Below, one piece after another: positions 1,978 to 21,114 of a stretch of DNA of 21,114 nt. Origin of the DNA: an uncultured virus (IMG/VR IMGVR_UViG_2061766007_000472) (taxonomy: Duplodnaviria > Heunggongvirae > Uroviricota > Caudoviricetes); IMG/VR virus record IMGVR_UViG_2061766007_000472. The stretch is one strand, 5' to 3'. Each line of letters opens with the position of its first letter. Within the stretch, counting starts at the first letter, position 1. Below the pieces are notes generated by a model. That model was given only the letters and a program-made list of their open reading frames with translations, did no database searches and was not told the DNA's origin. Position numbers and translations under genes: made by a program.

Positions 1978-2748
1978 ATGCCTGGATGCAGTAGACAGAA
2001 AAACCCAAGGGGAATAGAGATTTTGTTTGACGAAGATACACATAGGTATTCTTCGGTAATAAACGGAAAGGAAATAACATATGTTTCTGGTACGACCTTT
2101 GTTCATAAGTTCTTTCCCCAATTCGACCCGACTGGTGAAATAACGAAACGATGTGCCTTGAAAGAAGGAATAAGCGTTGAAGAAATCAGGGCAAAATGGA
2201 AAGCTAAGGGAGACGCATCATCTAAATTCGGAACCAAGATTCACGAAACAGTAGAAGACGTATTAAAAGGGAACATGCTCAGAAACAAGCCAGAAAACGA
2301 AAAAGAGCAAAAAACAATGCAGTCTGCCATAAAATTGGCAAAACTTATTCTGGAAAAAACCGAGATAATAGGAATAGAGAAGATAGTTTTCGATTCAGAT
2401 ATAAAAATAGCTGGGACGATGGACCTGTTTGCGAGGTCCAAGAAGAATGGAAGTCTTTGGATTTTCGACCACAAGACAAACGAACGAATAGACACTTTCA
2501 ACAGATGGAACAAGTTTGCACTTCATCCAATAGAAAATATCGCAGACACAAACTATTTCCAGTACGCATTGCAGTTGAATCTTTATGAAAACATACTCAA
2601 AAGAGCTGGATACGTTGACAAAAACGAGAAAATAGAAAAGGCCCTTTTCCATCTGACTGAATCTGGAAACAAGACATACCAGCTTCCAAATGCACAGTCT
2701 GAAATAGAGAGAATGATTGAGTATTTCTTGTCAGGAAAACTGAAATGA
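1978..2748 (+). CDS. PD-(D/E)XK exonuclease (phage RecB/Cas4-like family)
   Basis: Motifs FDEDTHRY, SGTT, GTKIHETVE, E..V....IAGTMDL, IFDHKT and YALQLNLY match this phage nuclease family. Confidence 0.85.
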   Translation: MPGCSRQKNPRGIEILFDEDTHRYSSVINGKEITYVSGTTFVHKFFPQFDPTGEITKRCALKEGISVEEIRAKWKAKGDASSKFGTKIHETVEDVLKGNMLRNKPENEKEQKTMQSAIKLAKLILEKTEIIGIEKIVFDSDIKIAGTMDLFARSKKNGSLWIFDHKTNERIDTFNRWNKFALHPIENIADTNYFQYALQLNLYENILKRAGYVDKNEKIEKALFHLTESGNKTYQLPNAQSEIERMIEYFLSGKLK

Positions 2749-3122
2749 AGATTTATACTAGTTATTTCGCCAATATAAGAAAAATACCGTTGAATTTTTC
2801 ACTTTTCTCAATAGCTGGGAAAACACCAGACTGGTTTCCTGGGGAACGTCTTACCATGTTCGCACCAAAATACTATTGGTGGAATGAATGGCATTCAACA
2901 TTCAAAGACGACTTAGAATCAGATAAATCCATTAAATTCTATAAAACGATGTACAATGAAACAGTTCTTTCGAAGATAGACCCGTTGTTGATGAAAGAGA
3001 TGTTTTATAAAATGGAGAAAACCCCCTGTCTTATGTGCTACGAGGGTCCAGGAAAATTCTGCCACAGGCATCTTGTATCTGATTTTCTTTTCAAAAACGG
3101 ATTTGAAGCAGAGGAGTATTAA
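2745..3122 (+). CDS. DUF488-like protein
   Basis: N-terminal IYTSYFAN and C-terminal CLMCYE....CHRHLV; ATGA overlap with the upstream gene. Confidence 0.7.
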   Translation: MKIYTSYFANIRKIPLNFSLFSIAGKTPDWFPGERLTMFAPKYYWWNEWHSTFKDDLESDKSIKFYKTMYNETVLSKIDPLLMKEMFYKMEKTPCLMCYEGPGKFCHRHLVSDFLFKNGFEAEEY

Positions 3123-3123
3123 C

Positions 3124-4068
3124 ATGAAAAACATCCTAATAACTGGCGGAAGAGGATTCATAGGATTCAATGCACTGAAATTATGGAAAAAATCAAGACC
3201 AGAGCTTAATTTTTTCAATATAGACGCAGAGACTTATTCCGATAAATTTCTAATAGACGAGAAAAATTCATGGCTTAATGAAAACAACGTACCTCATTTC
3301 ACATTGGACCTGGGTTCTTCGTTGGCACCAGAAGCCATAGATAGCATAATAGAGCTATTCCAGATAGACACGATATGCCATTTTGGTGCCGAAAGCCACG
3401 TCGANNNNNNNNNNNNNNNNNNNNNNNNNNNNGGAACAATAAACCTTCTTGAATCAATAAAGGGAAAAGACATTAGGTTTCATTATGTTTCAACTGATGA
3501 AGTATATGGAACTACTTTCCCTACAGATAATATAACCGAAAAATCACCATTCAATCCATCGTCTCCATATAGTTCTTCAAAGGCTTCCGCAGATTTTATA
3601 GTCCAGTCATACATGAAGAGTTTCGACATAAAAGCGTCCATAACCAGAAGCTCAAACAACTTCGGTCCTTATCAAAGCCCAGAGAAGTTTATCCCGACGA
3701 TTCTCAAAAAACTCGGAAAAGGGGAGAAGATACCCGTTTACGGAGATGGCCAGCAGTTCAGGCAATGGATTCCAGTTGACGACAATAACCTTGCGATTCT
3801 AGACGTAATGGAAAAAGAACCTGGTTCGATATGCAATGTGTCATCAAACAATTTAGGATACATGAAAAACATTGACGTAATCAGGATTTTTTCCGAAATG
3901 TATGGAAAAACAGTCGATGAATCCGTAGAATTTGTCGAAGACCGTAGAGCGCACGACATCTCTTACTACATTTTGAACTACAAAACCCCAGAATACGGAG
4001 AAACACACATAAAAGACATGTTTGTGAAAACCTATGAGTGGTATAGGGAACATGAAGAAAAGGTATAA
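3124..4068 (+). CDS. rmlB: dTDP-glucose 4,6-dehydratase
   Basis: ILITGGRGFIG (NAD binding), HFGAESHV, STDEVYG, PYSSSK (YxxxK), NNFGPYQSPEKFIP, YGDGQQFRQW. Start placed at ATG 3124. Confidence 0.9.
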   Translation: MKNILITGGRGFIGFNALKLWKKSRPELNFFNIDAETYSDKFLIDEKNSWLNENNVPHFTLDLGSSLAPEAIDSIIELFQIDTICHFGAESHVXXXXXXXXXXGTINLLESIKGKDIRFHYVSTDEVYGTTFPTDNITEKSPFNPSSPYSSSKASADFIVQSYMKSFDIKASITRSSNNFGPYQSPEKFIPTILKKLGKGEKIPVYGDGQQFRQWIPVDDNNLAILDVMEKEPGSICNVSSNNLGYMKNIDVIRIFSEMYGKTVDESVEFVEDRRAHDISYYILNYKTPEYGETHIKDMFVKTYEWYREHEEKV

Positions 4069-4069
4069 T
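4064..4069 (+). promoter_or_regulatory. TATAAT -10 element overlapping the rmlB stop, 6 nt before ATG 4076
   Basis: GGTATAATATT context as at 12786 and 18183 (GTATAATATT at 9892). Confidence 0.5.
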
Positions 4070-4075
4070 ATTCGC

Positions 4076-5125
4076 ATGGAAAACAAAATACGAATAACAA
4101 GGACCCTTCTGGACAAGAACAAAGACGAGCTCACCGAAGAGGAAAAGGAACTCGTTGACGAGTTCAACGAGGAAAGGTCCAGATTTGACAAAAGGATTTC
4201 CGAAGAAAACGAAAGAATAGCTTCGGAGTGCTCCATACTTTGCTCTGGTGGTGAACGGTGCCCCATTCCAGACTATGGATGGATTCGGCCTGTCAAGAGA
4301 CTATGCTACGCTCTGGAAAATTTGAATCATGATTTCAGAAAATACGGTATTTCTGTCGTACTTGACCAGACAAAGGAAAAATACGGAACTCTTAGATTCT
4401 ATACGCATATCAATACACGGGAAATTGGATTCTGGGGATTAATACTCAATCCACTGGACAAAATAGTGGAATGGATGTCGAACATCAACTTCGGAAGAAA
4501 ACTGGTTACGGACAAGCCAGAATACAGGACGGTCGAGTGGAGAGAAATAACAAAAGAGCAGTTCGACACCAAAACAAACGAATACGGAGTCCCGTTCGAC
4601 AAGTATGGAAACAAGGTCATTGTTGTAAGTTCGAAAAAAGAAGTAAAGAATCCAGAGAAGATTGAAAGAAATACGTATCTTGTCGAAGAAGACGGAAAAT
4701 TTTTCTATTCTTATACCTTATATCACATGGCCGAAACTCATGTTGAATACACGAAGCATTTTTTACTAAGGAAAATTCGTGATGCAATCAGACAGATTTC
4801 AACTTCACTTGACAGGTTCTACAAGGAACCAAAGATTCAAGCAGTGAAGATTCAGGAGATGGACTATAGGGTTGACGAACTTGTAAGAGATGCTGAAAGA
4901 GAGTGTATGAAGGTATGTCAGCATTGCGGTGCGGATTTCGGTGATTATTACAAGCAGTGTGAAACGCAGGGATGGTACATGTATCTCTGCCAGAGATGCG
5001 CCGACGCGACTGGAATGGAATACGTAATGGACGGAAAGCACTACATGGAAGGCGTCGACATATACCAGAACGAACCAAAGGAAAACCAAACTGAATCAAA
5101 CGAAAACGGAATCGGTGAAAAATGA
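4076..5125 (+). CDS. Conserved phage hypothetical protein with QxKEKxGxLRFY motif and C-terminal Cys cluster
   Basis: DQTKEKYGTLRFY and CQHCG...GW...LCQRC (possible Zn site). Start placed at ATG 4076 after TATAAT. Confidence 0.7.
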   Translation: MENKIRITRTLLDKNKDELTEEEKELVDEFNEERSRFDKRISEENERIASECSILCSGGERCPIPDYGWIRPVKRLCYALENLNHDFRKYGISVVLDQTKEKYGTLRFYTHINTREIGFWGLILNPLDKIVEWMSNINFGRKLVTDKPEYRTVEWREITKEQFDTKTNEYGVPFDKYGNKVIVVSSKKEVKNPEKIERNTYLVEEDGKFFYSYTLYHMAETHVEYTKHFLLRKIRDAIRQISTSLDRFYKEPKIQAVKIQEMDYRVDELVRDAERECMKVCQHCGADFGDYYKQCETQGWYMYLCQRCADATGMEYVMDGKHYMEGVDIYQNEPKENQTESNENGIGEK

Positions 5126-5550
5126 AAAGCAACGCAAAGCAACGCAATCTTGACAAAGAGAAGAAAAAACTCTGGAAAGAGTTCGAGAGGATTTACAGAA
5201 AATCCGTCAGTTCCGCAAAATCTCTTCTGAAAAAAGCGAAGGTCTTCCATTTCTTCGAGGAGAAGGACGGATGGGATGATACCCCACAGCCCATATCTGG
5301 ACATGTATGTGACGAGATGACACCAGAGGAAATCTTCGTATGGATGTACGAAAACGCAGTAAATCCAAGAAACATAAGGTCTCCGTACATCTACTCCGAC
5401 GAAGAGATAGAGTCATTCAGGAAGAATAGGAATCTCCTAAAAATCGAGGATTGGAAAAAGTCAATCGAGTTCTACAAAGAACAGATTAAGAAATACGAAA
5501 AGAGAATTTGCGACGTAGAACGGGAAATAAAGACTGGTAGGGACACATGA
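5122..5550 (+). CDS. Hypothetical protein
   Basis: 142-aa ORF coupled by ATGA overlaps at both ends. Confidence 0.7.
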   Translation: MKSNAKQRNLDKEKKKLWKEFERIYRKSVSSAKSLLKKAKVFHFFEEKDGWDDTPQPISGHVCDEMTPEEIFVWMYENAVNPRNIRSPYIYSDEEIESFRKNRNLLKIEDWKKSIEFYKEQIKKYEKRICDVEREIKTGRDT

Positions 5551-6227
5551 AAATCGAATTAGACGAAAATTTCTGGTATGATGAAAACGACGACAGGTCT
5601 CGTGTTTTCCAAGTATTTCCACAGGTGTTCGGAGACGACAGGGGCTCGTTCATCGAAACTTGGAAAAGCGTAAACGGAAACCTTCCAGACGAATTGAAGA
5701 AGTTTCCTTGGTTTTCACAGAACGGATGGATTAAACAGATGAACGTGTCGTACAGCAGGTCGAGCGTGATACGAGGTTGCCATGCCCAAGGCGGAGCTTC
5801 TTGTCAGGCAAAGCTAGTCTCGTCGTTGAACGGAAACATTTGGGACATAATAACAGATGCAAGGCCGCAGTCCGAGACTTTCATGATGACAAAGGTGTAC
5901 TTTCTTAACCCTAGACTCCAAAACAAGCTGTTTGTTCCGAGGGGTTTTCTTCATGCGTTTCTGACTGGAATAGACCTGAAAGACGACCAGAAGTACATAT
6001 TCAGCTACATATGCGATAATGTATACGACAAGACGAGCGAAATTGGAGTTTTTCCTCTTAACATCGTATTGCCAGCCTTCTCAAAATATTGTGAAAAATA
6101 NNNNNNNNNNNNNNNNNGTAATTCACCAATTACCTCAACGAGGGACACCAAAGGACAGGATGCCGATGATTTCTTCAAGTTAGTTAAGGAAGAATATAAC
6201 AAGAATTCAACTCTTTGGTATAGATGA
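5547..6227 (+). CDS. rmlC: dTDP-4-dehydrorhamnose 3,5-epimerase
   Basis: FGDDRGSFIETW, QMNVSYS...VIRGCHAQ, QAKLV and LFVPRGFLHAF are cupin RmlC motifs. Confidence 0.88.
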   Translation: MKIELDENFWYDENDDRSRVFQVFPQVFGDDRGSFIETWKSVNGNLPDELKKFPWFSQNGWIKQMNVSYSRSSVIRGCHAQGGASCQAKLVSSLNGNIWDIITDARPQSETFMMTKVYFLNPRLQNKLFVPRGFLHAFLTGIDLKDDQKYIFSYICDNVYDKTSEIGVFPLNIVLPAFSKYCEKXXXXXXXNSPITSTRDTKGQDADDFFKLVKEEYNKNSTLWYR

Positions 6228-6558
6228 ATGTATGTTCAGACAATTTAAATAAACTCCAACTGGAAAGACTTGAGGAAATTGAATACATGAAACTCATGTA
6301 TCAAAAAAGAATTTCCTTGGAAAAAGACCACGAGAGACATGAATTGGAAGAATGCATGAAATACGTATATCCAGAATATCTCAAAAAGAAAGCAAAAATT
6401 TTATCATATGACTTCTGCAAAATTGAAAAATACGAAGAGAAAAACCCAACAAAAAATGAAAATAAAACAATNNNNNNNNNNNNNNNNNNNNNTCTGTGAT
6501 TTTCGGGATATCAACTGCTATCACTTTAATATTGACATTTTTAGGTATATGTAAATAA
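6224..6558 (+). CDS. Hypothetical protein with C-terminal hydrophobic segment
   Basis: ATGA-coupled to rmlC; after the N gap another frame reads SVIFGISTAITLILTFLGICK-TAA(6556-6558). Confidence 0.55.
6551..6557 (+). promoter_or_regulatory. Putative late promoter GTAAATA
   Basis: Exact motif 22 nt upstream of ATG 6580. Confidence 0.45.
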
Positions 6559-6841: not shown

Positions 6842-9114
6842 TTATATATAAATTATTTCATCATAACAACGTATCTAAGAACCTGATTTCAGGCCCCATC
6901 TATCATATCCCATAAGTCTTACTCCCTATCCGTTCTTATTGATTTTAATTGTGAGTGGGTTATTTCCACCGAACGCATTCACGTCTATTGTTTCAATTGT
7001 ACTTGGAATAGAAATGGAAAGCAGATTTTCAACTCCGCCAAAAGCCAGCTCACCTATGGTTGTTACTCCATACGGTACGGTAAATTCGCCGCTAAGACCA
7101 GTGCAGTCTTCGAAAGCAGCTACACAAATACTTAATATGCTTGTTGGGAGTGATACACTCGAAAGACTTTTACAACTGTGAAATGTGCCAGAGTCAATAA
7201 TAGTAATCCCGTCTGGAATGGTTATTTCCGTAAGGCTGGAGCACCAATCGAAAGCCCCTCCTCCAATGCTCGTAACACTATTGGGTATATCTATGTTTTT
7301 CAGTTTTCCGCAGTACTAAAAAGCATCAAGCCCAATCTCGACAATGCTATCTGGCAATTTCACACACGATAGAGAACTACATGATTCAAATTGTTCCATC
7401 TAAACACACGAAATCCCGTTCTGTATTATCGCTGAAATCATGTTTTCGCAATGTGAAAAACATGCACGGCCAATGCTCAGAACACTGTTTGGAATGTTTA
7501 TAGACTGAATTCCATAGCAGTGGTAGAATGCCGCTTCTCCAATACAAGTGACACTATTCGGAATGTCAACAGAAGTAATGGACTTACATATTATGAACGC
7601 GCCACTTCCTATCTCCAATACTCCGTAAGGAATCTTTAACTATGGTATTTTTTCACAACCCGCGAATGAATTTTCTTCTATGCAGGAAATGCCATTTGGA
7701 ATGGAAATCGGGGTCTAAACGTTTTCACATCCAAAAAAGGCACTTTTTCCTATGCTCAACATGGTCTCTGGAAGAACCACGTCCCGTAATCTCGAACACG
7801 TATTGAATGCACTTTTTCCTATGCTGGACACCCCATTCGGGATTGTAAAAGAGGACAAATTCTGGCAAGCTTCGAACACCTCCTGACCAATGCTGTTCAC
7901 GTCCGTTCCAACCTGAACCGAATATACCTAAGTCCTGTCTATCCCGACATCCTACATAGCCTGTCTGTCGAGAACCCCAACTATATCGTGTTTTACTGGA
8001 TACTCCCCTATTACGCCGAATGTTGTCTCTTTCTCGCTTACTATCTAAATCACAACCCATTTTTCATCAGAAAAGTCGTAATTGAAGGAAAACTCTCCGT
8101 CCTTGCATGTGATATCTATTTCACGTGCGTCAGTCGTGAATGCACCATTGTCAAACCATTCTCTTATCTCATCGATTGACTAGTTCTGGAAAGTAAGGAA
8201 ACTCTTGTCTTGTTCCTGAACGAATCCAGTCCTAAAGAAAACTTCCTTTCCCATTCCAATTTGTCCGTTTTCTATGTATATTTCGTGCAGGTTTTCACAT
8301 CCGATAAAAGCATTTCGTCCAATAGTCTTCACGCTGCCTGGTATTATGACGCTTTTTACAAAATCGTTTCCACTAAATGCACTATTGGCTATTCCCCTTA
8401 CGCCTTCAAGGTCTATATTCTCAACATCGGAAATGCATGATACTGCCCATCCATCAACAAGAACCATTCCGTCTACAGTCTACTCGTCAAAAATGGATTC
8501 ACTGCATCTAGTGAAAACATCCGCTCTGATTTCCATTACGCTGTCTGGTATCTTGATTGAACTCAAGTTAGAACAACCGTAGAACGACATATGTGGAAGT
8601 TTTTTTATTCCATCCCTTAATGTAACATCTGTTATTTTCTGACAGTTTATAAAACAGCCGTTTGTCAAACCGACCACACCAGCCAAGTCCAATATTTCAT
8701 CGACGTTATCGTCATATTTGACGACCCATCCGTCAACTATCGACAATCCTGGAATTGAATGAGTATCGCACAGGTCTTGTGAACAGCGTAAAAACGAACC
8801 GTTCCCGATTTCNNNNNNNNNNNNNNNNNNNNNNNNNNNNNNNNNNNGCAGCTATTGACTCCTGATACTACAAGCACATCCGAACCTATTTCGATTCTTA
8901 TCACGTCTTTGGCCCATTCCTGGTTGGTTGAAACCCAAACCAGAAATCCGTTGTCCAAAAGCCATTCCCTGTCAAAAATACCCAGTATGTCATATTTTTC
9001 AACTGTTCCGTCGGCCATATAGAAAACAGTTTCTTTCGTACGTTCCCTATAGTCGATTTCAATCCACTTTGCGACGTCTCCGCCTGGATATCCCAAAAAT
9101 GCCTGCATTCCCAT
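6842..9114 (-). CDS. BspA/TpLRR-type leucine-rich repeat protein (~750 aa; TAG=Gln)
   Basis: ATG 9114 follows GAGGAAGG. After the gap at 8813-8847 one frame runs to TAA 6842-6844 through 11 in-frame TAGs (8480, 8180, 8045, 7952, 7928, 7715, 7640, 7400, 7316, 6926, 6875). Many IPxSVxxIGxxAFxxCxxL repeats continue across the TAGs. Confidence 0.88.
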
Positions 9115-9124
9115 AAAACCTTCC

Positions 9125-9850
9125 TCACTCTCCCCTGAACGCATTCAGGAACTTCATCACCGCTTTTCCAAGGAACTCGGCCTTGTTTTCGACTATGTTC
9201 GTGTTCGGCATCTTCGAAATGCTCTTCTCGAAGTCGTTGAACGTCTCCTCCAGGATTTCCCCATGAGTGTTCACGATGAAGCTCTTCGACTCGAGGATTC
9301 CGTTCACGAACCTGTTCGCATTTGATTTGTTGAATATCCCTATCGAAGGATTCAGAACGGTGTCGATGCATATCAGCTGGTAGTCCTCCACCACCCCAGT
9401 AGACTCGTTCACGTTCCCGACTCCCCTTGAAGAGTGCCCTATTGCCGTGTCGAACTGAAGAAGAGACTTCAGAAGGTCTCCGCACTTAGTTCCCTTTATC
9501 CCGAATTTCTCGTCAGACGCCAGCACCACCGAAGTTCCAATCCACGATTTGTTGTCTTCTTCAAGGGACAAGGTCCTTGCGCACACCCTGTCTGGGTTTA
9601 TCGTTATCTCGGAAGAATGTTCGAGCTCTTCAAGGGCGGTTTTCGTCTGGATTTTCTCCTTTATGAACTTGTCGACCGTCGGCTTAAGGTCCTCGTATGG
9701 ATATATTCTGTTGTTTCCGTTTTTTACGTCAGACGTGAGATACGTTCCCCTCATCATTATCGTCTGCGGCTTTGTCTGGTCGCCAGACTCCGTGATTACC
9801 TCGAAGTTCTCAAGGTTGGACTCTATTATTAGCTTGAGTTTCTTAGACAT
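9125..9850 (-). CDS. Prohead core protease, T4 gp21-like
   Basis: DVKNGNNRIYP, ALEELEHS (catalytic His), GHSSRGVG (catalytic Ser) and DTVLNPS correspond to the gp21-family motifs NxNxRxYP, GELxHP, GVSSRGxG and DxVxxPS. Confidence 0.9.
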   Translation of the reverse strand: MSKKLKLIIESNLENFEVITESGDQTKPQTIMMRGTYLTSDVKNGNNRIYPYEDLKPTVDKFIKEKIQTKTALEELEHSSEITINPDRVCARTLSLEEDNKSWIGTSVVLASDEKFGIKGTKCGDLLKSLLQFDTAIGHSSRGVGNVNESTGVVEDYQLICIDTVLNPSIGIFNKSNANRFVNGILESKSFIVNTHGEILEETFNDFEKSISKMPNTNIVENKAEFLGKAVMKFLNAFRGE

Positions 9851-9904: not shown

Positions 9905-10174
9905 ATGAAAGAATCCACAAAACTTCCAAAGACGTTTCTTATCTTGGCAAAAACCAAAAACGGGAAATCTGGATACGTCAGATTCAGAAGCTATTTTACA
10001 GAAGACGGAAACGTCGAATACAGGATGTACCTTGTCGGAAAGGTCTCCGAGGCAAGCAAATACGTGACTTTGGACAACTCGAAGGTGAAGGCGAAGGAGC
10101 TTAAAACGAAATACGGATTTGCCGAAGTTCAGGTCATAGACGAACTTTCAAAGAAGGTTTACGTCATACATTGA
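9905..10174 (+). CDS. Hypothetical basic protein
   Basis: MKESTKLPKTFL...KVYVIH-TGA; start placed at ATG 9905. Confidence 0.7.
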   Translation: MKESTKLPKTFLILAKTKNGKSGYVRFRSYFTEDGNVEYRMYLVGKVSEASKYVTLDNSKVKAKELKTKYGFAEVQVIDELSKKVYVIH

Positions 10175-11894
10175 TTTCCTGACCTATTGAAATCCTATCC
10201 TTGTCCTTTATCTATGGATTCTTTTCAAGAAGCTCTTTCAGGGACATGTTGAATCTTTTCGCTATGACGCTTAGGCTGTCGCCTTTCTGAATCTTGTATT
10301 TTCCTTTTTCCAGGTCCTTTTTCGGCAGTGGGGTCATTGTCCCAGGAATTACGTATTTGGGGTCGTGCTCCTTGAGGTATCCAAATTTGTGACTTCCGAC
10401 TTCCAGGTCCAGCTTATCTCCCCATTGCGTTTTTGCTATCTGGCTGGCCTTGTCTGGATTCATGTACGAATTCCTGTTTCCTATCGTCGACTTGAACGTT
10501 CCGTTGAAGAGCTGCAATGCGAGACCTACACATTCCTTCCATATCTCCATATTCTTTCCATTTGAGAATATGCTGAGAGCCCCTCTGTTCGGAATCTTGT
10601 ACTTAAAGTTCTTCCAGTCTGACTAAGTCATTTTATTCCAGCATGAAAACGCCAATTTCTCCTTTATGACGGCTGGAAAGTTGTCCCTGTTCCCACCAGA
10701 CCTGTTCAGGATTACGGAACATATCGCCTTTCTCCCGTCCTGTCCCTCGGCATGCCCCTCTACGTAAATCGTCCTCGCAAGCATGTTCACAACGTCAGTT
10801 GCCGAATATCCACCGTATTTCTATTTGTCGGAACAGACTCCCTTTATAGCGTCCTGAACCTGCTTACTGTATATGTTCATCTCTTTCTGGTCAACTTTTT
10901 TCAGACCTTTCGCAAGTGCGTTTTGAGATACAAGTCCAGGAATTGCCAGAATCGACGCAAGGAGCATGTACTTCCCGAGATTCCTGACGCTTTGTCCCAC
11001 AGACTCGTTTACGTTTATTGACGACCCCACGCATCCAGTGACGCAATCCGCAACATCGTCCGCTTCATATCTGTCGATGTTCTCCTGAATCCTGGAAAAA
11101 CTCTTAAGAATCTTCAAATATCCGAACTTGTCCATCAGCTTGAACGAAGAATCGGCAATCTTCCATTTCCTGGACTGCCTTTTCCTGAGCGCGTCTTCTA
11201 CGCTCTTCGGAGACGAAAAAACCTTCCTGCATTGTTTGGCCGATTCGAAAATCTTCACCGCCTCGGAAATCTTCTCCTTTAGGAACTTGAACTCGTCATC
11301 CTTGAATTTTCCATCACTTGAATTCTGTATTACAAGAGCTGTTTCATAGCATTCCAGTATGGTGTTCCTTATGTCCTGTATGACTTCCTTCGCATATTCC
11401 ATGTCGTCCGAGTAGAATTCGGAATAGGGGTCGAAATCCAAAGGTTTCAATTCTGGTCCTACAAGCCACATTCCCTATATGAAATCGTAGCATCCTACGC
11501 TCATCAGGTCCTGGTAAGGATTAGCCTGGAAATAGACCTCCAGGGGATGGTCCCCTATTTTATCCTTATCTGTATGGATATCCTTGAAGTTTTCCTCGAA
11601 GTCCGCCCGCAATACCTTGTTCATGTCATCCGAGTTGTTTTCAGTAAGTCCTTCGAACGATATGTGGATATCTATGTCGGAATCCTTCGAATACTGGTTC
11701 GACGTTATGGACCCAGTTATCCTGACGGAAGGATTCTTGAGAGAAAACCTCTATGTAACGTAGTCAACTAGAGTCTGTATATTCTCCTTGGCCGTGTCCG
11801 TCAGAACGAAGGTCCCGTTCCCAGAGTCTTTCCAGACCTCCTGGTCGAGACCTTCCTTCGGGGAATCGAGTATTGACTCAAACTCAAGCATCAT
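10164..11894 (-). CDS. Nucleotidyltransferase - SleB-type cell wall hydrolase - LysM fusion (576 aa; TAG=Gln)
   Basis: Gap-free frame from ATG 11894 (ATGA overlap) to TGA 10164-10166 through TAGs at 11751, 11475, 10821, 10623 and 10212. Pol-beta NTase motif ITGSITSNQYSKDSDIDIH...HPLEVY. SleB/Hydrolase_2 motifs LARTIYVEGHAEG.....ICSVILNR, AFSCWN and VGSHKF. LysM: YKIQKGDSLSVIAKRFNMSLKELLEKNP[TAG]IKDKDRISIGQEINV. Confidence 0.85.
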
Positions 11895-12739
11895 CCCACC
11901 TTGACCGAGAAAACTGGTTTTCCACCGCTGCTCTTACTTTTTATCAAGTCGTTCTCTGAATACTGGGACTGTCCCATCTCTTCCACTTTTTCGGCAATCT
12001 TCGTCGCTATTGCCGCGACTATCATTCCCATCTGGACTCCTTGGACCTCGTCTCCTGGACATTCCAGTGAAAGATAAGTCTGTCCATCCTCAAGACCGTT
12101 AGTGGAGGAATTTCCAAAGCTCTTAAAGATTTTCTGCTTGTTTCCGAATGCACACTTTATTTCTATTTCCCTAAGGAATGGGTCCTTGTCGTGCATCTTT
12201 TGGAATTCGTCCACGACTTTGGCCATGAGTTCGGAGTTTTCCCCTCCTCCCTGTTCCGAATTTCCTCCCGCCTGGTCCATTCCCCTTACATTGACAGCGT
12301 AGAATCTTCTTTTTTGCTCTCCAGCCTTTCCTATATTTGCAAGCCCAATATCAGTTACGGTTTCATCAGTGAGTTTAATCCCTATGGAACCCAATATTTC
12401 ATTCATTTTCTCTATAAGCTCGTCTTTCTGGAAATCCTCCTGTGTAATGACTACCAGAAACTCCCTGGATGGAAGATTGTCTCTCGCTGATGCGAGGTCT
12501 GGATATCTTGTCAGAAGTTTCTCCTGGTTCGTCATATGCTGGTCAACGTTTCCAGAGATAAGCCATTCAAATTTAGATGTTTCCCCCTTAATCTTTTTTT
12601 GAAACGCGTCCGACCTCGCAAGGGCAATTACATGTGAAATCTTTTTTCCGAGTTCGCTTCCAACAGATGCAGTCCCCTCCGCAGTATCTCCCATTCCGAC
12701 TTCTGGTTCCCTATTTTTCTTCCTCGTGTTCTTTGTCAT
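11891..12739 (-). CDS. Hypothetical protein (putative late gene)
   Basis: 282-aa ORF with AGGA RBS, downstream of GTAAATA; no motif recognised. Confidence 0.75.
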   Translation of the reverse strand: MTKNTRKKNREPEVGMGDTAEGTASVGSELGKKISHVIALARSDAFQKKIKGETSKFEWLISGNVDQHMTNQEKLLTRYPDLASARDNLPSREFLVVITQEDFQKDELIEKMNEILGSIGIKLTDETVTDIGLANIGKAGEQKRRFYAVNVRGMDQAGGNSEQGGGENSELMAKVVDEFQKMHDKDPFLREIEIKCAFGNKQKIFKSFGNSSTNGLEDGQTYLSLECPGDEVQGVQMGMIVAAIATKIAEKVEEMGQSQYSENDLIKSKSSGGKPVFSVKVG

Positions 12740-12765
12740 GGCATTTTCCTGTTTTAATACCTTGT

Positions 12766-12791
12766 TATTTACCTGGAAACAGGGGTATAAT
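12766..12791. promoter_or_regulatory. Divergent promoter pair: GTAAATA on - (12766-12772) and TATAAT on + (12786-12791)
   Basis: TTATTTACC-N12-TATAATATT; TATAAT is 7 nt before ATG 12799. Confidence 0.65.
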
Positions 12792-12798
12792 ATTCCCT

Positions 12799-14129
12799 AT
12801 GAATTACACATATTTTGTAGACCTTGGAAGCATATTCTTCATAACGTTCATAATCGGGGCCTTCCTGGAATCAATGGTGGTCAATCTACTGCAATGGATA
12901 AATTCCGACAAAATGGACCTTAAGAACAGGATTTCTAAGATACGTGGTCTCGGAGAGCTTGCAGGCAAGCTCTTTTCCCAAAGAAAAGTTACCAAGGCGA
13001 TGAAGTACAAGGAAACCTCAGAGGGGTTTTCTGGAATGACTTCCTCGATACAATCTGGAATATCAACCATTTTGGTCATTTTCGGGATACTTCCATTCAT
13101 AGTCTGGTCAATCCACTCTTTCGTATTTCCCGATTCGAGAATGGTATGGAGCTGGATTCTGGCTTCGATTGTCACATCGTCTGCCGCCACGTTATTTGGA
13201 ATCCCATTTGGACTATACAATGATTTCGTGATTGAAGACAGATTCGGATTCAACACAAAAACAAGAAAAACCTTTTTTCTCGACGTGTTAAAGGGATTCG
13301 TCATTGGTTCCCTGATTACGGTCGGACTTCAGCTTGTTCTTGATTTTGCGTTGACTAGATTTGGAAAACTTGACGTCTACGGGGTCATTTGCTGCATAAT
13401 TACGCTGTTCTTCATAGCGAAAGTCATACAATGGTTTTCCGTAAACGTAATGTTTAGGATGTTCAACAAATTCAAGCCCCTTCAAGATAAAATGTTAAAG
13501 AAGAAGATAGACGAACTCTGCAGAAGATGTGGATTCAAGGTCTCTGGAATAGAGGTCATGGACGCAAGCAAGAGGACGAAACACTCAAATGCGTTCATAT
13601 GCGGCCCGTTTTGGAAAAAGAGGATAATCCTTTTCGATACAATATTCAAGACGCTTACCCATGACGAGATTCTTGGAATCATAGCACATGAAATAGGTCA
13701 CGGGAAACTACGCCACCTGGCAATAACGGATATGTTGATGATGATTTGGATGACGTCTTTCACTGCAATCTCCTTTGTTCTCATGAAAACCCCTTATTTC
13801 TATTCGTCCTTTGGCTACACGTGGGTAAACGAAACCAACATCGAGGAGAACTACATAATAGGGTTCAGCCTTGCCTCTGCATTCATATCCTCGATATCGT
13901 GGATTGTCACCCCAGTTTCAAACTGGATTTCGAGGAAANNNNNNNNNNNNNNNNNNNNNNNNNNNNNNNNNNNNNNNNNNNNNTTGAAAACGCTATTCTC
14001 AAGCTTACGTCCGAAAACCTGTCCGACGTCGCCCCGCATCCAGCATACGAGTTCGTAAACTACACACATCCATCGATTTACAACAGGATAACGGCAATCA
14101 GGAAAAATGAAAACCAAGAAAAGAGTTGA
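12799..14129 (+). CDS. M48 family integral membrane zinc metallopeptidase (Ste24/CAAX prenyl protease-like)
   Basis: Multiple TM segments, IEDRFGFN, MDASKRTKHSNAF, RIILFDT, AHEIGH (HExxH); after the N gap ENLS...PHPAYEFVNYTHP...RI in a second frame. Confidence 0.9.
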
Positions 14130-14460
14130 TTACGGAAAGATGGCTGAATTTCTAGCAAAATCCCTTCAGAGGTTCTATCCAGACAAACACATATTCGTCG
14201 GAACGAAATGGACAAAGGGACAAGAGGCGTGTTGGTCTCACATATCGGCAAGCAGAAAAATCCTTAAATCTGTTGACGAAGAATATGAATCCAGCCCAGA
14301 AATGTTTGGAACTATTTATCCCCTGTATTGCGGGAGCCTGGGAAAAACAATGGAAGACTCAATGAAAAATCTCGTGGAAGAATTCATCAAGGACAGAGAA
14401 AACAAACTTGGGATAATGAACATTAACGAAATACTCATGAACATTGATATTTTAGGATAA
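14107..14460 (+). CDS. Hypothetical protein
   Basis: 117-aa ORF with AGGA RBS, in a run of co-oriented genes. Confidence 0.7.
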   Translation: MKTKKRVDYGKMAEFLAKSLQRFYPDKHIFVGTKWTKGQEACWSHISASRKILKSVDEEYESSPEMFGTIYPLYCGSLGKTMEDSMKNLVEEFIKDRENKLGIMNINEILMNIDILG

Positions 14461-14462
14461 AA

Positions 14463-15062
14463 ATGAAAAATGCAAGACCGAGATTCTTCGACGACTGTTT
14501 TCACATCGGGATACGGAAATGCGTTGAATTCGAGAAATACATAGATATAGTCGAGAACCGTTCATCCGTTAATCCGTCGAAGAAATTTCCAGAAAAGCAC
14601 CATATAGTACCAAGGGAGTGGCTTTCGTGGAGAGTCAATGGATTCAATTTTGTCACCGAGGACGAAAACAACGTAGTGTACCTTTCCGTAAGGTCCAAGA
14701 TTATGGCAATGCAATACCTTGCGCTGGTGTTCCTAGAGATGGGCGATTCCGTGACGTACAAGAACATTACAAAGGCAATTTCAAGAAGATACCATATGAA
14801 GTGGTACGATTTCTGGAAAAACCCATATATGGACAGAAAACTCGTCGATGCCCTGGTTGAGAAGAGAATATCCGAACTAAACGGGAAGAAGACCAAATAC
14901 GGAGACGAATACCTTTCCAGGTGCATGGAAATAATGAATTCAGAAAAAGACAAGGACTCCGCGTTCGAGAAAGTAAGGTCCGAAATGGGATTTTCGTTCA
15001 CCAGAAGGGCCCTGGAAGAACAACTAAAACGAAGATTCGGGAAAGACTACACGAACAAATAA
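14463..15062 (+). CDS. Degenerate HNH endonuclease-like protein
   Basis: EKHHIVPREW...DENNVVYLSVRSKIMAM aligns with HHIxP...NLIRLTPKEHxxAH of the HNH genes in this window, but the later His residues are missing. Confidence 0.6.
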   Translation: MKNARPRFFDDCFHIGIRKCVEFEKYIDIVENRSSVNPSKKFPEKHHIVPREWLSWRVNGFNFVTEDENNVVYLSVRSKIMAMQYLALVFLEMGDSVTYKNITKAISRRYHMKWYDFWKNPYMDRKLVDALVEKRISELNGKKTKYGDEYLSRCMEIMNSEKDKDSAFEKVRSEMGFSFTRRALEEQLKRRFGKDYTNK

Positions 15063-15078
15063 CGGATTAAGGTGGATA

Positions 15079-15540
15079 ATGGATTTCAGACATAGGATAT
15101 ATAGAGCCATCAGGCTTCTTGGGTCGGACTACATCATAAGAATATATGGAGATTCCCTGCTAAAGAACACATTGGACATAGAAAAGACCCTAGGGATGAA
15201 ACTGTGCTATTCAACTGATTTCAGCCACGTTGAATCCGACAAGCTACCGTTCTGTTTCGTATGCGGGAAATCCATATACACGTTTTCAAACGAAAACCTC
15301 GAAAACATCGCAAGCCTGTTTTTCTCATATCCAAGCATATTCGAGGGAAATTTCGTCGTAAAGGAGACTGTTCCAGAAAACAGGAATCTTTTTCTGTACA
15401 GCGCAGTAAAGTATTTCCTTAAAAAATTCTCGCATGGAGGAAAACTCATCTGCGGAAAAGACTCCAGTTCAGAGATATACATACCAGAGTTCTCGACAAT
15501 TCCAGAGTTCAAAATGAAAATGGAGGTTTCTGGGATATGA
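15079..15540 (+). CDS. Hypothetical protein, IPxF...E(L/F)KMK C-terminal family
   Basis: Ends YIPEFSTIPEFKMKMEVSGI. Confidence 0.7.
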   Translation: MDFRHRIYRAIRLLGSDYIIRIYGDSLLKNTLDIEKTLGMKLCYSTDFSHVESDKLPFCFVCGKSIYTFSNENLENIASLFFSYPSIFEGNFVVKETVPENRNLFLYSAVKYFLKKFSHGGKLICGKDSSSEIYIPEFSTIPEFKMKMEVSGI

Positions 15541-15923
15541 TAGACACGATGGAGTCCGTACTTGAGTCAGTTGAGGTTCTGGAAAGAAAACTTGGATTGC
15601 ATTTTCTGGTCTTCAAATCGACAAACCAAACGTTTGTAATTCTTTCGTCAAGCAAATCCGTTGAAAACATCCTCTATGTATTCTCTGGAATAGAAGGAGC
15701 AGAGGTGGAACTAATATGGCCAGCCAGAGAATTGGAAATGTTCTCTGACGTATCCAGAATAAATGCGAAGGATATGTGGAAATCCCTTGTCGGACCAATA
15801 AACTATATAAACCGAGGGTTTTCTGTGTACAAAAAGAAATCGTGCGGAACGTTCGAGAAATATACTGACATCCCTTCTTTTTCATGCACTTCAGAATTAA
15901 AGATGAAATTGGACATATGCTGA
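15537..15923 (+). CDS. Hypothetical protein, IPxF...E(L/F)KMK C-terminal family
   Basis: ATGA overlap; ends DIPSFSCTSELKMKLDIC. Confidence 0.7.
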   Translation: MIDTMESVLESVEVLERKLGLHFLVFKSTNQTFVILSSSKSVENILYVFSGIEGAEVELIWPARELEMFSDVSRINAKDMWKSLVGPINYINRGFSVYKKKSCGTFEKYTDIPSFSCTSELKMKLDIC

Positions 15924-16612
15924 AAGCAAAAAACAAGTCAAAGAAGAAAAAATTCAAAAGCATAGCCAGGATGACAATGACCGACAGGCTCATGTTGTTC
16001 TTCTCTGGAGTTTGGACTTCGTCGATAGCAATGTCAGTTGTGAACGAGAAAATCTCAATGTCCATAATTTTTGCGTCCATTCTCATATTGTCCATGTCGT
16101 TCATCTCTCTTAAGCACATCTTTCGAGGAAGCCCCCAGTTTGACGGAACATGCAATTTCTACGACAAGGACGTGTCCAGGCTGTATTCAGACGACGAGAC
16201 CCTGTGCGTCCTGTGCAAGTTCTTCGGGATGTTCCTCGGGGTGTACACGGATTCGTTTTCTGGCATGAAGAGCAAAAGACTCGCCCTTTTCTGGCCGAAC
16301 GGGGACTTGTGCATGAAAAAATCCGAAATTTTAAACTGCAATGGAGACGAAGTGTCCATCATGGACCCAATTTCAACCCCATTCACAAGCTTTGACTTTT
16401 CTGAAATAAATTCTGAACGAGCATTGAGGTTGATAAAAACCATTGTTTCGAGCACGACAATAGGTGGGTCGAAAATACTAAACTACGACGGTACGATGGA
16501 AGCGGACATCCCAGAATTCAAGACGGCAAACGAACTCAAGATGAAGCTCGACATAAACGGAGCAAAGACATATGTACGAGATTTACACCAAAAACAAAAA
16601 AATCGTAAATAA
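15917..16612 (+). CDS. Hypothetical membrane protein, IPxF...E(L/F)KMK C-terminal family
   Basis: Basic N-terminus, two hydrophobic segments, DIPEFKTANELKMKLDING near the C-terminus. Confidence 0.7.
   Translation: MLKAKNKSKKKKFKSIARMTMTDRLMLFFSGVWTSSIAMSVVNEKISMSIIFASILILSMSFISLKHIFRGSPQFDGTCNFYDKDVSRLYSDDETLCVLCKFFGMFLGVYTDSFSGMKSKRLALFWPNGDLCMKKSEILNCNGDEVSIMDPISTPFTSFDFSEINSERALRLIKTIVSSTTIGGSKILNYDGTMEADIPEFKTANELKMKLDINGAKTYVRDLHQKQKNRK
16605..16611 (+). promoter_or_regulatory. Putative late promoter GTAAATA
   Basis: Exact motif 5 nt before ATG 16617. Confidence 0.45.
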
Positions 16613-16616
16613 AAAC

Positions 16617-17238
16617 ATGAAAAACCCGATTAAAGCCATTGGCAAGTGGACATACGGAATTTGGTCAAAATTCCTCGACATAATAGGAGACATAAAGGTT
16701 TTCAAGTGGCCGATGTTCATAGTCTACGACCCGTCGTACTTCCAGATGACTGGGCCGATGATTCAGGAGGCGATGAAAATCCTTAGGCCAGGGGACATAG
16801 TCCTGAGGGGATACGACCACTACCTCGACGGGCACTTCATAAATGGCGACTACTCCCACGGGTCGGTCTGCACTGGACCAGAGGAGATTACCCACGCCGT
16901 GTCACCGAAAGTGTGCACGGTNNNNNNNNNNNNNNNNNNNNNNNNNNNNNNNNNNNNNNNNNNNNNNNNNNNNNNNNNNNNNNNNNNNNNNNNNNNNNNN
17001 NNNNNNNNNNNNNNNNNNNNNNNTTCGGCTTCAACACTGGGGACCCAAACGAGGTGTACTGCTTCGAGCTCGCCGCAAGGTCGTATCCGTCGCTGTCATT
17101 CAAGAAATACACCGTAAAATATCTCCTCGGCCTCGTNNNNNNNNNNNNNNNNNNNNNNNNNNNNNNNNNNNNNNNNNNNNNNNNNNNNNNNNNNNNNNNN
17201 NNNNNNNNNNNNNNNNNNNNNNNNNNNNNNCCTCCTAA
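16617..17238 (+). CDS. Permuted papain-like NlpC/P60 enzyme (YiiX/YebB-like); two N gaps, end uncertain
   Basis: LRPGDIVLR...YSHG (His) precedes VYCFELA (Cys), the permuted order typical of this family. Confidence 0.7.
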
Positions 17239-17342: not shown

Positions 17343-18137
17343 TCATCGTCCCTAAGACGAGTAACCCATGTACAGCCCCTCTTCCTTCGGAATGTAGACT
17401 TTGTGTGTCTTGTTTTCGCGTCCGTCCCTCCAGTCCCGCAGTGCCAGAAAGTTAAAATACGCATTTCCATTGTCGTCTCCGTATTTTCCAAGCAGTTCAT
17501 CCACTGCGGATTTTGCGTCTTCGAGACTGTCTCCCTCGTATACATGAACCACTTCACCAGTGGATTCGGCCCCTATCGACACGTCATACGCTGGATGGTC
17601 GGAATACATGTGCTCGCCCAAGAACTCATGTGCCTCTTCAAAGTCGGCAAACGAGGTCCAATGGCAATCTCCCCCGTTTTCAAAGAGGACGAACTGCGGG
17701 TCTTCCACCTTTCTTCCATAAGGGGAAGTCATGTCCGTCCTGGCATAGTCTCTCAAAAATTGGTAGAAATCCTTTTCATTTCCCTTGTCCAGAACCCAGC
17801 TCTTGTACGCCCTTCCATCCTTGTCGTTATGGTCGCAAGCTGGCCATTCCTCTTTACCTATAGTGTCGAAGAACTTCTGGATGCACTCCCTTGCCTAAAC
17901 GTCCTTTTCGCTGTCGGAAAGGAAGAAGTTGTCGTAGAATCCATACATCATCAGGAGGAAAAATTCGTCGCTTCCGTACATTTTCTCGTTCTTTAGGTCG
18001 AAAAACGTCCATTCGTTGTGGTACATCGTCTTGAGCTCTTCGTCGTTGAAACCACCAGAAACCCCTCCGTTGTTTTTCATCTCTTCGCTCTCAAAAAGCA
18101 TCGCCCAGTGCCTGATGAGTCCTTTGTCTATGTCCAT
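17343..18137 (-). CDS. Acidic hypothetical protein (264 aa; TAG=Gln), putative late/virion protein
   Basis: ORF-track pieces 17895..18137 and 17352..17756 are the same frame; reading through TAG 17895 and 17352 ends at TGA 17343-17345. Confidence 0.7.
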
Positions 18138-18197: not shown

Positions 18198-18817
18198 ATG
18201 GGAAAAGCAACGGATTTCCGCGACCAGGCAAAAGGCTTTTCATGTTCGGTGAAGACGACAAGAAGCCTGCACGAGGTCCTCTCCGAACTCGGGGAGGAGG
18301 CGCTCTCGCTCGCCTATTCGGAGGTGTCGGCTGCGTCACGCTGGGCGCGCGGCGCAATCCTCACGACGAGGTACGGGCAAGCAGACGGCTCGTGGGGTTC
18401 GATATTCATATTGGGAATGCACGAGAACCTGGACGGGACGGTCGACGACAGGTACGACGGGTTCAACATCCCGAGGGAGGCCGTCCTTTCCGAATCGGAC
18501 GTCGTCCCAGCGTCCAAACGTCTCCTCGAAAGGGTTTTCAGGGGAATGCCGAGCCTGAAGGCAAGGGTCAGGATTCTGACGGACATCAGGGGTCAGAGGC
18601 TCGACATGGAGGAACCGCNNNNNNNNNNNNNNNNNNNNNNNNNNNNNNNNNNNNATACTTGAAATTCTCGCAAGACAGGGGCACGAGGACGTAAGCGCCG
18701 CGCTCGAAGCCGTTTTAGACGCCGTTCCACGGTCAATTGAATGCACTGGCCCAGATTTCACGAAAGACGGCGGAAAAGGCGGGGGACTTTACGTCTCGGT
18801 CACGTTCAAGGGAGCAA
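18198..18817 (+). CDS. GC-rich hypothetical protein, 3' end in N gap
   Basis: Open from ATG 18198; after the gap a frame ILEILARQGHEDVSAALEAVLD...LYVSVTFKGA stays open to the next gap. Confidence 0.55.
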
Positions 18818-19303
18818 NNNNNNNNNNNNNNNNNNNNNNNNNNNNNNNNNNNNNNNNNNNNNNNNNNNNNNNNNNNNNNNNNNNNNNNNNNNNNNNNNNN
18901 NNNNNNNNNNNNNNNNNNNNNNNNNNNNNNNNNNNNNNNNNNNNNNNNNNNNNNNNNNNNNNNNNNNNNNNNNNNNNNNNNNNNNNNNNNNNNNNNNNNN
19001 NNNNNNNNNNNNNNNNNNNNNNNNNNNNNNNNNNNNNNNNNNNNNNNNNNNNNNNNNNNNNNNNNNNNNNNNNNNNNNNNNNNNNNNNNNNNNNNNNNNN
19101 NNNNNNNNNNNNNNNNNNNNNNNNNNNNNNNNNNNNNNNNNNNNNNNNNNNNNNNNNNNNNNNNNNNNNNNNNNNNNNNNNNNNNNNNNNNNNNNNNNNN
19201 NNNNNNNNNNNNNNNNNNNNNNNNNNNNNNNNNNNNNNNNNNNNNNNNNNNNNNNNNNNNNNNNNNNNNNNNNNNNNNNNNNNNNNNNNNNNNNNNNNNN
19301 NNN

Positions 19304-19956: not shown

Positions 19957-19974
19957 ATCATTTATTGGCTTTAT

Positions 19975-20004
19975 ATTATACTGGGACGTGCGGGCGGGTA
20001 AATA
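19975..20004. promoter_or_regulatory. Divergent promoter pair: TATAAT on - (19975-19980) and GTAAATA on + (19998-20004)
   Basis: Inverted copy of the arrangement at the other junctions. A + strand TATAAT (20003-20008) also overlaps it. Confidence 0.55.
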
Positions 20005-20012
20005 TAATCATC

Positions 20013-21005: not shown

Positions 21006-21015
21006 NNNNNNNNNN

Positions 21016-21114
21016 TCTATTCATCGCCTCCTTCACCGCAGCCGACATCTTCGCCCTTAACTCTGGATTTTTCATCGGGTTTTTGTCTCCCATAAACTTC
21101 GCCCTTACCTCTGG
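21016..21114 (-). CDS. Fragment of another NUMOD3-repeat (probably HNH) endonuclease
   Basis: PEVRAKFMGDKNPMKNPELRAKMSAAVKEAMNR; 21061-21114 is identical to 19480-19533. Confidence 0.6.

Follow-up and report, generated by a model that had tools for sequence, protein, structure and literature searches.

The 21,114-nucleotide stretch of DNA analysed here (the window), from the uncultured virus record IMGVR_UViG_2061766007_000472 (Caudoviricetes), raises the question of whether a phage can make, from a single gene, a protein that both cuts peptidoglycan and transfers nucleotides, and of where such a protein would act. The gene lies at 10164..11894 and is crossed by five in-frame TAG codons; a first-pass annotation had read it as a fusion of a nucleotidyltransferase (NTase), a SleB-type lytic transglycosylase and a LysM domain, in a virion-delivered or membrane-spanning protein. 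We find that it encodes one polypeptide with four parts (an NTase-like module with its helical bundle, a weakly hydrophobic helix, a SleB-type lytic transglycosylase and a LysM domain) and that it belongs among the true late genes of a large phage in which TAG is recoded. The function we favour, with confidence and doubt in equal measure, is that of a virion-associated "polyvalent" protein, made late, packaged and maybe cut by a protease, rather than that of an ordinary lysis enzyme.

One polypeptide read through five TAG codons

The gene and its parts are the following:

10164..11894, minus strand: whole gene, 576 codons plus a TGA stop, five in-frame TAG codons read as Gln
11445..11858, minus strand: pol-beta-fold NTase core, residues ~13-150 (Pfam NTP_transf_2, motifs, Foldseek, AlphaFold2 (AF2))
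11709-11714, 11670-11678 and 11538-11540, minus strand: NTase motif sites G61-S62, D73-I-D75 and E119, respectively
11019..11429, minus strand: helical bundle completing the N-terminal module, residues 156-292 (AF2 secondary structure and alignment)
11001..11012, minus strand: V295-N-E-S298, matching the family motif [LIVM]-[DN]-E-[SG], shortly before the hydrophobic helix
10929..10970, minus strand: weakly hydrophobic helix YMLLASILAIPGLV, residues 309-322, then ...ALA-K (hydropathy and flank charges)
10371..10814, minus strand: SleB/CwlJ-type (Hydrolase_2) lytic transglycosylase domain, residues 361-508, with E379 at 10758-10760
10167..10298, minus strand: LysM peptidoglycan-binding domain, residues 533-576 (Pfam)

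The single 576-codon frame, which the first-pass annotation had described without naming its strand, was found on the minus strand; a plus-strand reading of 10164-11894 was ruled out by the many stops with which that frame is riddled. The TAG codons fall at residues 48, 140, 358, 424 and 561 of the 576-residue protein (11751-11753, 11475-11477, 10821-10823, 10623-10625 and 10212-10214). The gene frame contains no TAA and its sole TGA is the terminal one, against 13 TAA plus 17 TGA and 8 TAA plus 12 TGA in the remaining two minus-strand frames (30 and 20 stops, respectively), and the open frame is therefore well beyond chance. Under translation table 11 the product ends after 47 residues and the gene falls into six pieces; code-11 fragments of it are present in the database (e.g., P0123, 216 aa, 100% identical), as expected from the earlier claim that code-11 annotation would miss the gene.

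To judge from the alignments, the TAGs of this gene are sense codons. That they are real stops, and the region a string of small genes or a pseudogene, is hardly credible: the six pieces obtained with table 11 speak for it, as does the tRNA search of the window, which found none and hence no suppressor tRNA, but the alignment of 42 full-length homologues is unbroken across all five TAG sites, and the AF2 model of the read-through protein, built on these 42 homologues, has a mean pLDDT of 85.8. The 11 homologues available at the DNA level have sense codons at the five sites, with TAG again in a few (locus L012, 62% identical, has CAG at site 140), and the residues opposite the TAG codons of the family are Gln in 12.7% of cases against a background of 3.9%, a 3.2-fold enrichment. 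The entire fusion is encoded without any TAG in four loci (L012, L016, L018 and L029), and it is therefore no by-product of stop read-through; sense codons were also found in homologues at 10821, the TAG that had been named beforehand as a potential true stop. Separate genes ending at TAG were ruled out by the homology across the TAGs together with the TAG-free relatives.

The same codon usage extends to other genes of the window. All 23 complete gene models stop at TAA (10) or TGA (13) and none at TAG, a count that is partly circular, the models having been partly defined with TAG read through. Seven models contain in-frame TAGs (1-12 each, 34 in total). Six of the seven lie on the minus strand and comprise two tail-fibre-like genes, a gene encoding a BspA-type leucine-rich-repeat (LRR) protein, the gene studied here, its upstream open reading frame (ORF) and one unannotated ORF; 14 of the 15 plus-strand models have none. 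This distribution matches the pattern of preferential recoding of late genes in recoded gut phages, as given in bioRxiv 10.1101/2021.08.26.457843. The window is a mosaic, with plus-strand blocks (1978-6499, 12634-17117) interleaved with minus-strand genes (2-2121, 6842-8965, 10164-12811, 17343-18137); the TAG-free plus-strand blocks encode a PD-(D/E)XK exonuclease, sugar-nucleotide enzymes, an M48 peptidase and unknowns, and most of the interleaved minus-strand late or structural genes hold 1-12 TAGs each.

The nucleotidyltransferase module and its wall-cutting partners

The two enzymatic assignments of the first-pass annotation, its helical region and its LysM domain were all recovered. NTP_transf_2 (PF01909) covers residues 41-101 with 23.0 bits, above the cut-off of 21; G61, S62, D73 and D75 are invariant in the 42 full-length homologues, and the third-strand residue E119 is retained by ≥90% of these. 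The signature hG[GS]/DhDh/hEh is intact (T-G61-S62, D73-I-D75-I, L-E119-V) and fits the patterns hG[GS], [DE]h[DE]h and h[DE]h given for the pol-beta NTase superfamily (Kuchta et al. 2009, as quoted in PMC7291057). Across the same homologues the N-terminal half has more invariant columns than the C-terminal half, and the alignment of relatives of the N-terminal module (N-module) shows R223, P229, W244 and K252 of the helical bundle to be invariant. Folded alone with AF2, the N-terminal 300 residues give an NTase core plus helical bundle (pLDDT 89, pTM 0.82).

All 50 matches listed in a Foldseek search of the PDB with this domain model are pol-beta-fold NTases or complexes (E 0.018-0.17), including LinB, AAD(9)/AadA, ANT(4'), CD-NTases, MNT antitoxins, CCA-adding enzymes and TUTases; the core resembles the MNT antitoxins 2RFF and 8XEH (TM by target ~0.5), and 2RFF is the sole match of a sequence-profile search of the PDB (E 0.009). 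The module shares the layout of an NTase core followed by a helical C-domain, and the catalytic signature, with LinB, AAD(9)/AadA, ANT(4'), MNT antitoxins and CD-NTases; unlike these small-molecule or minimal NTases it matches at E ≥ 0.018 and a global root-mean-square deviation (rmsd) above 14 A, with no Pfam family beyond the generic NTP_transf_2. The fold matches of the helical bundle were generic four-helix bundles only, both VIA-align runs (Z ≤ 9.7) gave nothing else and did not reveal the NTase subtype, and the fold matches in BFVD were all uncharacterised phage proteins. Identity with RlaP was rejected, as PF10127 is absent from the Pfam matches at E ≤ 1. On the models, then, the NTase signature is intact, and the structure matches do not single out a subfamily or substrate.

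In the C-terminal half, Hydrolase_2 (PF07486) covers residues 383-504 with 25.1 bits, below the gathering cut-off of 27, which relatives pass (P0197, 44.9 bits; P0072, 39.5 bits). Foldseek places this half on the SleB catalytic domains 4FET_A and 4F55 (prob 1.0, TM by target 0.71 and 0.68), and E379 (IYVEGHAE), invariant in the 42 homologues, is aligned with the Glu of YGESRGE in the Bacillus cereus SleB 4F55, which we take to be the catalytic residue. The domain thus has the fold and the Glu-bearing motif of the SleB/CwlJ spore-cortex enzymes (PF07486; 4FET, 4F55), from which it differs in being phage-borne, in its sequence score just under the Pfam cut-off, in the attached NTase module and in its wall-binding domain, a C-terminal LysM in place of the N-terminal peptidoglycan-binding domain of SleB/CwlJ. 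The LysM domain itself (PF01476) passes easily (43.5 bits, cut-off 20.9, E 3.1e-11), and PDB LysM structures match at an rmsd of ~0.9 A.

The architecture is common in metagenomes. The combination was unfamiliar to the first-pass annotation, and the rarity that this implied was not upheld: the whole-protein search gave at least 216 database clusters at E ≤ 0.001, and one cluster member carries the automatic JGI name "LysM repeat protein/predicted nucleotidyltransferase". Among the 120 matches listed, 100 cover at least 88% of the protein at 35-66% identity, and the contigs that carry them reach 396 kb; CheckV rates two IMG/VR contigs that encode full-length members, 50 and 88 kb long, as ~18% and 31% complete, and the genomes should therefore be roughly 280 kb. 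The longer members of the family carry cREC_REC and/or a second NTase inserted between the N-module and the hydrophobic helix. Searches of 50,697 cultured or deposited phage records by tblastn and blastn, with the whole protein or the region, gave no match, and neither did an IMG/VR single-sequence scan; a pattern scan of 185,579 bacterial and archaeal species, each represented by one genome, gave no relative, although such a scan can miss distant members. A Hydrolase_2 search of five related viral records produced one sub-threshold match, in a partial record; the domain is absent from two complete 414-434 kb genomes that carry the N-module alone.

The N-module belongs to a phage-only family of its own, phrog_36119 (unknown function), matched weakly by the window protein (E 0.0033) and better by the L001 homologue (3.2e-4) and by the stand-alone relatives in L003 (7e-12) and L008 (2.6e-11), all of them linked by profile A2 (25 members). 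This profile finds 3924 representatives at E ≤ 0.001 (50% clustering) and 180 at E ≤ 1e-30. Stand-alone forms, ~300 aa long, account for 86 of the 305 proteins gathered and are carried by complete recoded phages of 414-434 kb, among others; distant relatives are found in Lak megaphages, in 634-735 kb "huge phages", and in the T4-like Synechococcus phage S-CRM01 and Caulobacter phage Cr30 (hhalign 97.5-97.9% for the latter two). A cytidylyltransferase-like gene stands two genes upstream of the stand-alone homologue in both Cr30 and S-CRM01 (L009 3731-5726, g127-g125).

Fusion partners were counted by a Pfam scan of 58 multi-domain N-module representatives. A C-terminal LysM and/or Hydrolase_2 domain is present in 15 and an N-terminal SLT lytic transglycosylase, with the module last, in five, that is, a muralytic fold unrelated to SleB in reversed order; the other partners are a second canonical MNT-type NTase (4), the RNA-repair domains cREC_REC (3) and HAD_SAK_2 (2), DUF5662 (2), ART-PolyVal (1), DMP19 (1) and LigD_N (1), with an NTase match only in four and no Pfam match in 22. 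One metagenomic relative extends more than 1000 residues further and has a cytidylyltransferase-type HxGH motif near its C-terminus (read by eye), and ESM Atlas clusters of the same fold are labelled PAP2, CTP_transf_like and AAA_33/Zeta_toxin. The role proposed for the cRec domain is the processing of cyclic phosphates during RNA repair or NAD-related conflicts (PMC7824862).

Helix, gene neighbourhood and the site of action

The hydrophobic stretch noted in the first-pass annotation gives the protein its highest 19-residue hydropathy score (Kyte-Doolittle 1.62); in 41 of 42 family members hydropathy peaks at this helix (mean ~1.6, borderline for a membrane span), which is A/S/G-rich, with a conserved ALA-K after it. 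For its flanks, 121 proteins (P0001-P0121) were taken, of which 15 were dropped for lack of the catalytic-motif regular expression; in about 12 of the remaining 106 rows the script mislocated the helix. The 14 residues on the N-side have a mean net charge of -2.0 and the 18 on the C-side of +1.3, with N<C in 97 of the 106, N>C in six and equality in three. The family thus lacks the positive N-side flank of signal anchors, and the charge bias, opposite to the need of an N-in signal anchor, argues against one as far as sequence can tell. The SLT fusions open with a like acidic leader and an A/G-rich helix, and their NTase and lysin lie on the same side of it; a helix that keeps the NTase in the cytoplasm and the lysin outside can therefore not be the general design.

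A short motif precedes the helix. The pattern x-x-E-[SGANT] occurs within the 14 residues before it in 94 of the 106 members, with L/V/I/M at P3 in 76 of these, D/N at P2 in 78 and S/G at P1' in 89; MAFFT places the family motif column four residues further on in the window protein. At the other end of the module, 96 proteins have 10 or more residues ahead of the invariant E-S that opens it, and in 74 of these the residue at P3 is I, L, V or M. The T4 prohead protease prefers L/I-x-E, and the [LIVM]-x-E-[SG] motifs bordering the NTase module on either side could, from their pattern, be candidate protease sites. An internal translation start at the motif before the helix, which would yield a secreted SleB-LysM protein with its own signal peptide, was considered and rejected: the P3 codons in the two loci examined are GTA (window) and GTC (L002), neither of them a start.

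The genes next to the fusion are the following:

9125..9850, minus strand: T4-type prohead serine protease (Peptidase_S77 / phrog_207), no in-frame TAG, downstream neighbour
6842-8965, minus strand: BspA-type LRR protein, 707 aa (LRR_5, E 6e-108), 12 in-frame TAGs
~9905-10174, plus strand: small ORF of ~89 aa without membrane segment, convergent, between the gene and the protease, its end overlapping the 3' end of the gene
11891..12811, minus strand: upstream ORF without family match, its stop overlapping the start of the gene; probably a 282-aa version starting at 12739
12634-14058, plus strand: M48/CAAX-type integral-membrane zinc peptidase (Peptidase_M48_N plus Peptidase_M48), standard code

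The gene stands among TAG-bearing late genes (tail fibre, BspA-type LRR protein) and adjoins the TAG-free prohead protease. Twenty loci were compared, in two of which ORF picking missed the target; the protease is the downstream neighbour in five (the window, L014 and L016, annotated directly in the latter two, and L015 and L017, linked by BLAST cluster). The SLT-NTase genes lie 3-5 gene models upstream of the tail sheath and tail tube genes in L057 and L058 (myovirus tail modules), and unannotated ORFs of matching size and order are found in L055 and L056. In L057 the SLT and NTase parts are split into adjacent genes (3613-4161, 4165-5091), and the best PHROG matches of the SLT part, scanned in this locus, are phrog_2013 "lytic tail protein" and phrog_342 "internal virion protein with endolysin domain". 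The stand-alone module sits within the head module in L008, and in L005 the large terminase (TerL) gene precedes it, with one gene between; tail-fibre-like genes stand upstream and downstream of the L001 homologue, non-adjacent to it. The split L057 proteins share a short leader, M-x-x-L-L-E-K-x-L, which may be a targeting signal or a trace of the split.

The location in late structural modules, together with the independent SLT fusion in tail modules, lends indirect support to delivery with the virion. Of the two placements that the first-pass annotation had left side by side, virion-delivered therefore gains, and membrane-spanning is unsupported, in view of the flank charges and of the single-sided SLT fusions. 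In the reading we favour, the protein would be made late and incorporated into the particle, and the neighbouring T4-type prohead protease may cut it at the conserved [LIVM]-x-E-[SG] motifs flanking the NTase module. At infection the helix-SleB-LysM half would bind and cut peptidoglycan, opening the way for the DNA, and the NTase half would enter the cytoplasm with the DNA and act on a nucleic-acid or nucleotide substrate; the domains that accompany the N-module elsewhere suggest RNA-end repair or interference with nucleotide-based defence as its role. More tentatively, the phrog_36119-type NTases might form a new class of injected phage enzyme, made as a late precursor with a muralytic module (SleB-type here, SLT-type elsewhere), freed by the prohead protease at the hydrophobic-x-Glu sites and delivered into the next host, there repairing or modifying RNA ends or intercepting nucleotide immune signals before phage gene expression.

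Several observations weigh against delivery from the virion. All PHROG matches of the C-terminal half are labelled lysis or transglycosylase, mostly "endolysin" (the SleB-type domain matches phrog_938 endolysin); a hydrophobic helix, A-x-A, a muralytic domain and LysM form a common endolysin layout; and the protein has neither a MuF nor a portal domain, nor any other known packaging domain. The virion location of family members is proposed from genomic context, and the neighbours vary between subclades: other subclades have a conserved upstream protein of 270-307 aa, a small downstream ORF and an exonuclease on the opposite strand. The stand-alone homologues of Cr30 and S-CRM01 sit among DNA-metabolism genes, and in Cr30 (L010 2877-4212) the last 8 nt of gp179, annotated "endolysin", overlap the start of the NTase homologue gp180. 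At the N-terminus of the window protein (MMLEFE-S) the residue at P3 is Glu, not hydrophobic; the protease-site reading is indistinguishable from ordinary domain-boundary conservation; and some distant stand-alone relatives have Q or T in place of the third catalytic carboxylate (position 119).

The main rival, possible but doubtful, makes the protein a phage endolysin acting from within, its helix being a signal anchor or a segment of the signal-arrest-release (SAR) kind that exports SleB-LysM and its NTase-like module a cytoplasmic regulator or timer, or dispensable; release could be by signal peptidase at A-x-A or by the neighbouring M48 membrane protease. The endolysin labels among the PHROG matches, the weakly hydrophobic A/S/G-rich helix with its ALA-K, the lateness of the gene (deduced from its TAGs) and the Cr30 overlap fit this rival, as does the M48 integral-membrane peptidase, divergent from the operon of the gene and conserved in position in the window, L012, L015 and L016, which could bear on the processing of a helix-bearing protein. 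It is weakened by the charge bias, which in 97 of 106 members runs against what the positive-inside rule demands of an N-in/C-out anchor, by the SLT architecture, in which export from an N-terminal helix would take the NTase out too, where there is no nucleoside triphosphate (NTP), and by the structural-module context, the SLT versions lying in tail modules rather than lysis cassettes and the window gene between head-morphogenesis and receptor-binding-type genes. Nor does a holin-like small membrane-protein ORF recur on the strand of the gene among 96 neighbouring ORFs in 18 loci.

Two further explanations concern what the NTase does rather than where. The enzymes might be coupled, by analogy with the silencing of HEPN by MNT, the NTase nucleotidylylating the attached muralytic module or an envelope precursor in a self-regulated wall-remodelling device. 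The N-module does have three wall-active partners (SleB fusion, SLT fusion and endolysin adjacency in Cr30), its core resembles MNT antitoxins, same-fold ESM Atlas clusters are fused to PAP2, cytidylyltransferase-like and Zeta-toxin-like kinase domains, and a weak GT25-like lipopolysaccharide glycosyltransferase ORF follows the stand-alone gene in the complete 434-kb recoded phage of L005 (10917-11612, 22.6 bits, cut-off 24). We nonetheless regard coupling as unlikely: the module is fused just as well to RNA-repair and ART domains, which have no link to the wall, it often stands alone (86 of 305), no modification site is identifiable and the argument is one by analogy only. Very unlikely, too, is an inert NTase-like module serving as a structural or packaging adaptor for a virion lysin; the Q or T at position 119 of some distant relatives and the recurrence of the module at the ends of otherwise unrelated large phage proteins would suit it, but not the invariance of G61, S62, D73 and D75 and the ≥90% conservation of E119 in the 42 fused members, nor the greater number of invariant columns in the N-half.

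Known systems and further features of the window

Multi-domain phage proteins that join a wall-cutting domain to effector enzymes are a known kind; this combination and this NTase family were not found described. The nearest are the polyvalent proteins of phages and conjugative elements, proposed to be injected with the DNA and proteolytically processed, whose domains include PF07486 and pol-beta NTases (Iyer, Burroughs, Anand, de Souza, Aravind 2017, PMC5512222). The window protein, with its NTase, lytic transglycosylase and LysM, likewise holds at least two domains of disparate activity in one phage polypeptide, the general theme of that paper, and joins a peptidoglycan-attacking domain to unrelated enzymatic domains; ART-PolyVal, cREC and second NTases, partners of the N-module, belong to the polyvalent repertoire (PMC5512222). 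Unlike the proteins described there, it lacks MuF, a zincin peptidase or another hallmark packaging or processing domain and has an internal hydrophobic helix, and the polyvalent NTases are minimal, fused to ArdC-N and from Firmicute conjugative elements, not the NTase-plus-helical-bundle family. A literature search found no paper describing the fusion architecture or the NTase family; the supplement of PMC5512222 lay outside that search.

The protein also resembles virion-associated peptidoglycan hydrolases and ejected lysins in having its muralytic domain encoded in structural modules and a hydrophobic segment beside the lysin, and differs from them in matching only families labelled lysis or transglycosylase. 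Internal or ejected virion lysins are exemplified by T7 gp16 and T5 Pb2; we know of no virion-associated peptidoglycan hydrolase with an NTase-like module. Signal-anchored and SAR endolysins have a weakly hydrophobic A/G/S-rich helix immediately before the muralytic domain, a type of helix shared by the window protein, where, however, it is internal, after 300 residues, and its flank charge is opposite.

The N-module is very common in large phages, and the gene gives a handle on its function: two independent fusions connect the module with the enzymes that open the wall at entry, and others connect it with RNA-repair and ADP-ribosyltransferase domains. If the enzyme is indeed pre-packaged, a nucleotidyltransferase would be added to the short list of phage-injected proteins. 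It would also become clear how recoded phages provide for the first minutes of infection, when their late genes cannot yet be read; pre-packaging would matter especially in such a phage, early translation of recoded genes being impossible. Code-11 pipelines break the gene into pieces, and with many fragments in the database, surveys of lysins and counter-defence genes will undercount it.

The other neighbours differ from clade to clade. Homologues of the ~89-aa convergent ORF occupy the equivalent place in three loci (L014, L015 and L017), and L016 has a cluster mate that stands farther downstream; Rfam gave no match in the intergenic region downstream of the gene. Giant LRR or DUF285 proteins also neighbour the gene in L016, L018, L030 and L035. 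A second subclade has a conserved protein of 200-307 aa and unknown family directly before the gene (L026 9075-9998, L031 2329-3141, L036 9063-9983, L002 9386-9991), which in P0056 (875 aa) is fused to the N-terminus of the gene product; BLASTP detects no similarity between the 306-aa upstream ORF of the window and those of L001 or L002. The same subclade has a small acidic downstream ORF without family match (L026 11769-12005, L031 5130-5468, L036 12218-12523, L037 1751-2200), ending in EIGIS-x-DF in two loci and in EIGVKIDF and VIGIEGNF in the other two; a small downstream ORF ending in EIGIxxDF is not present in the window.

The window contains 14 runs of N (1058 bases in total, e.g., 18818-19303), which interrupt the tail fibre, LRR protein and homing endonuclease genes; none falls within 10164-11894. 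Sugar-nucleotide genes encoding a NAD-dependent epimerase/dehydratase and a dTDP-4-dehydrorhamnose 3,5-epimerase are found at 3073-4068 and 5547-6227 (both plus strand), and two HNH/NUMOD-type homing endonuclease genes lie back to back at 18733-19956 (minus strand) and 19965-21095 (plus strand).

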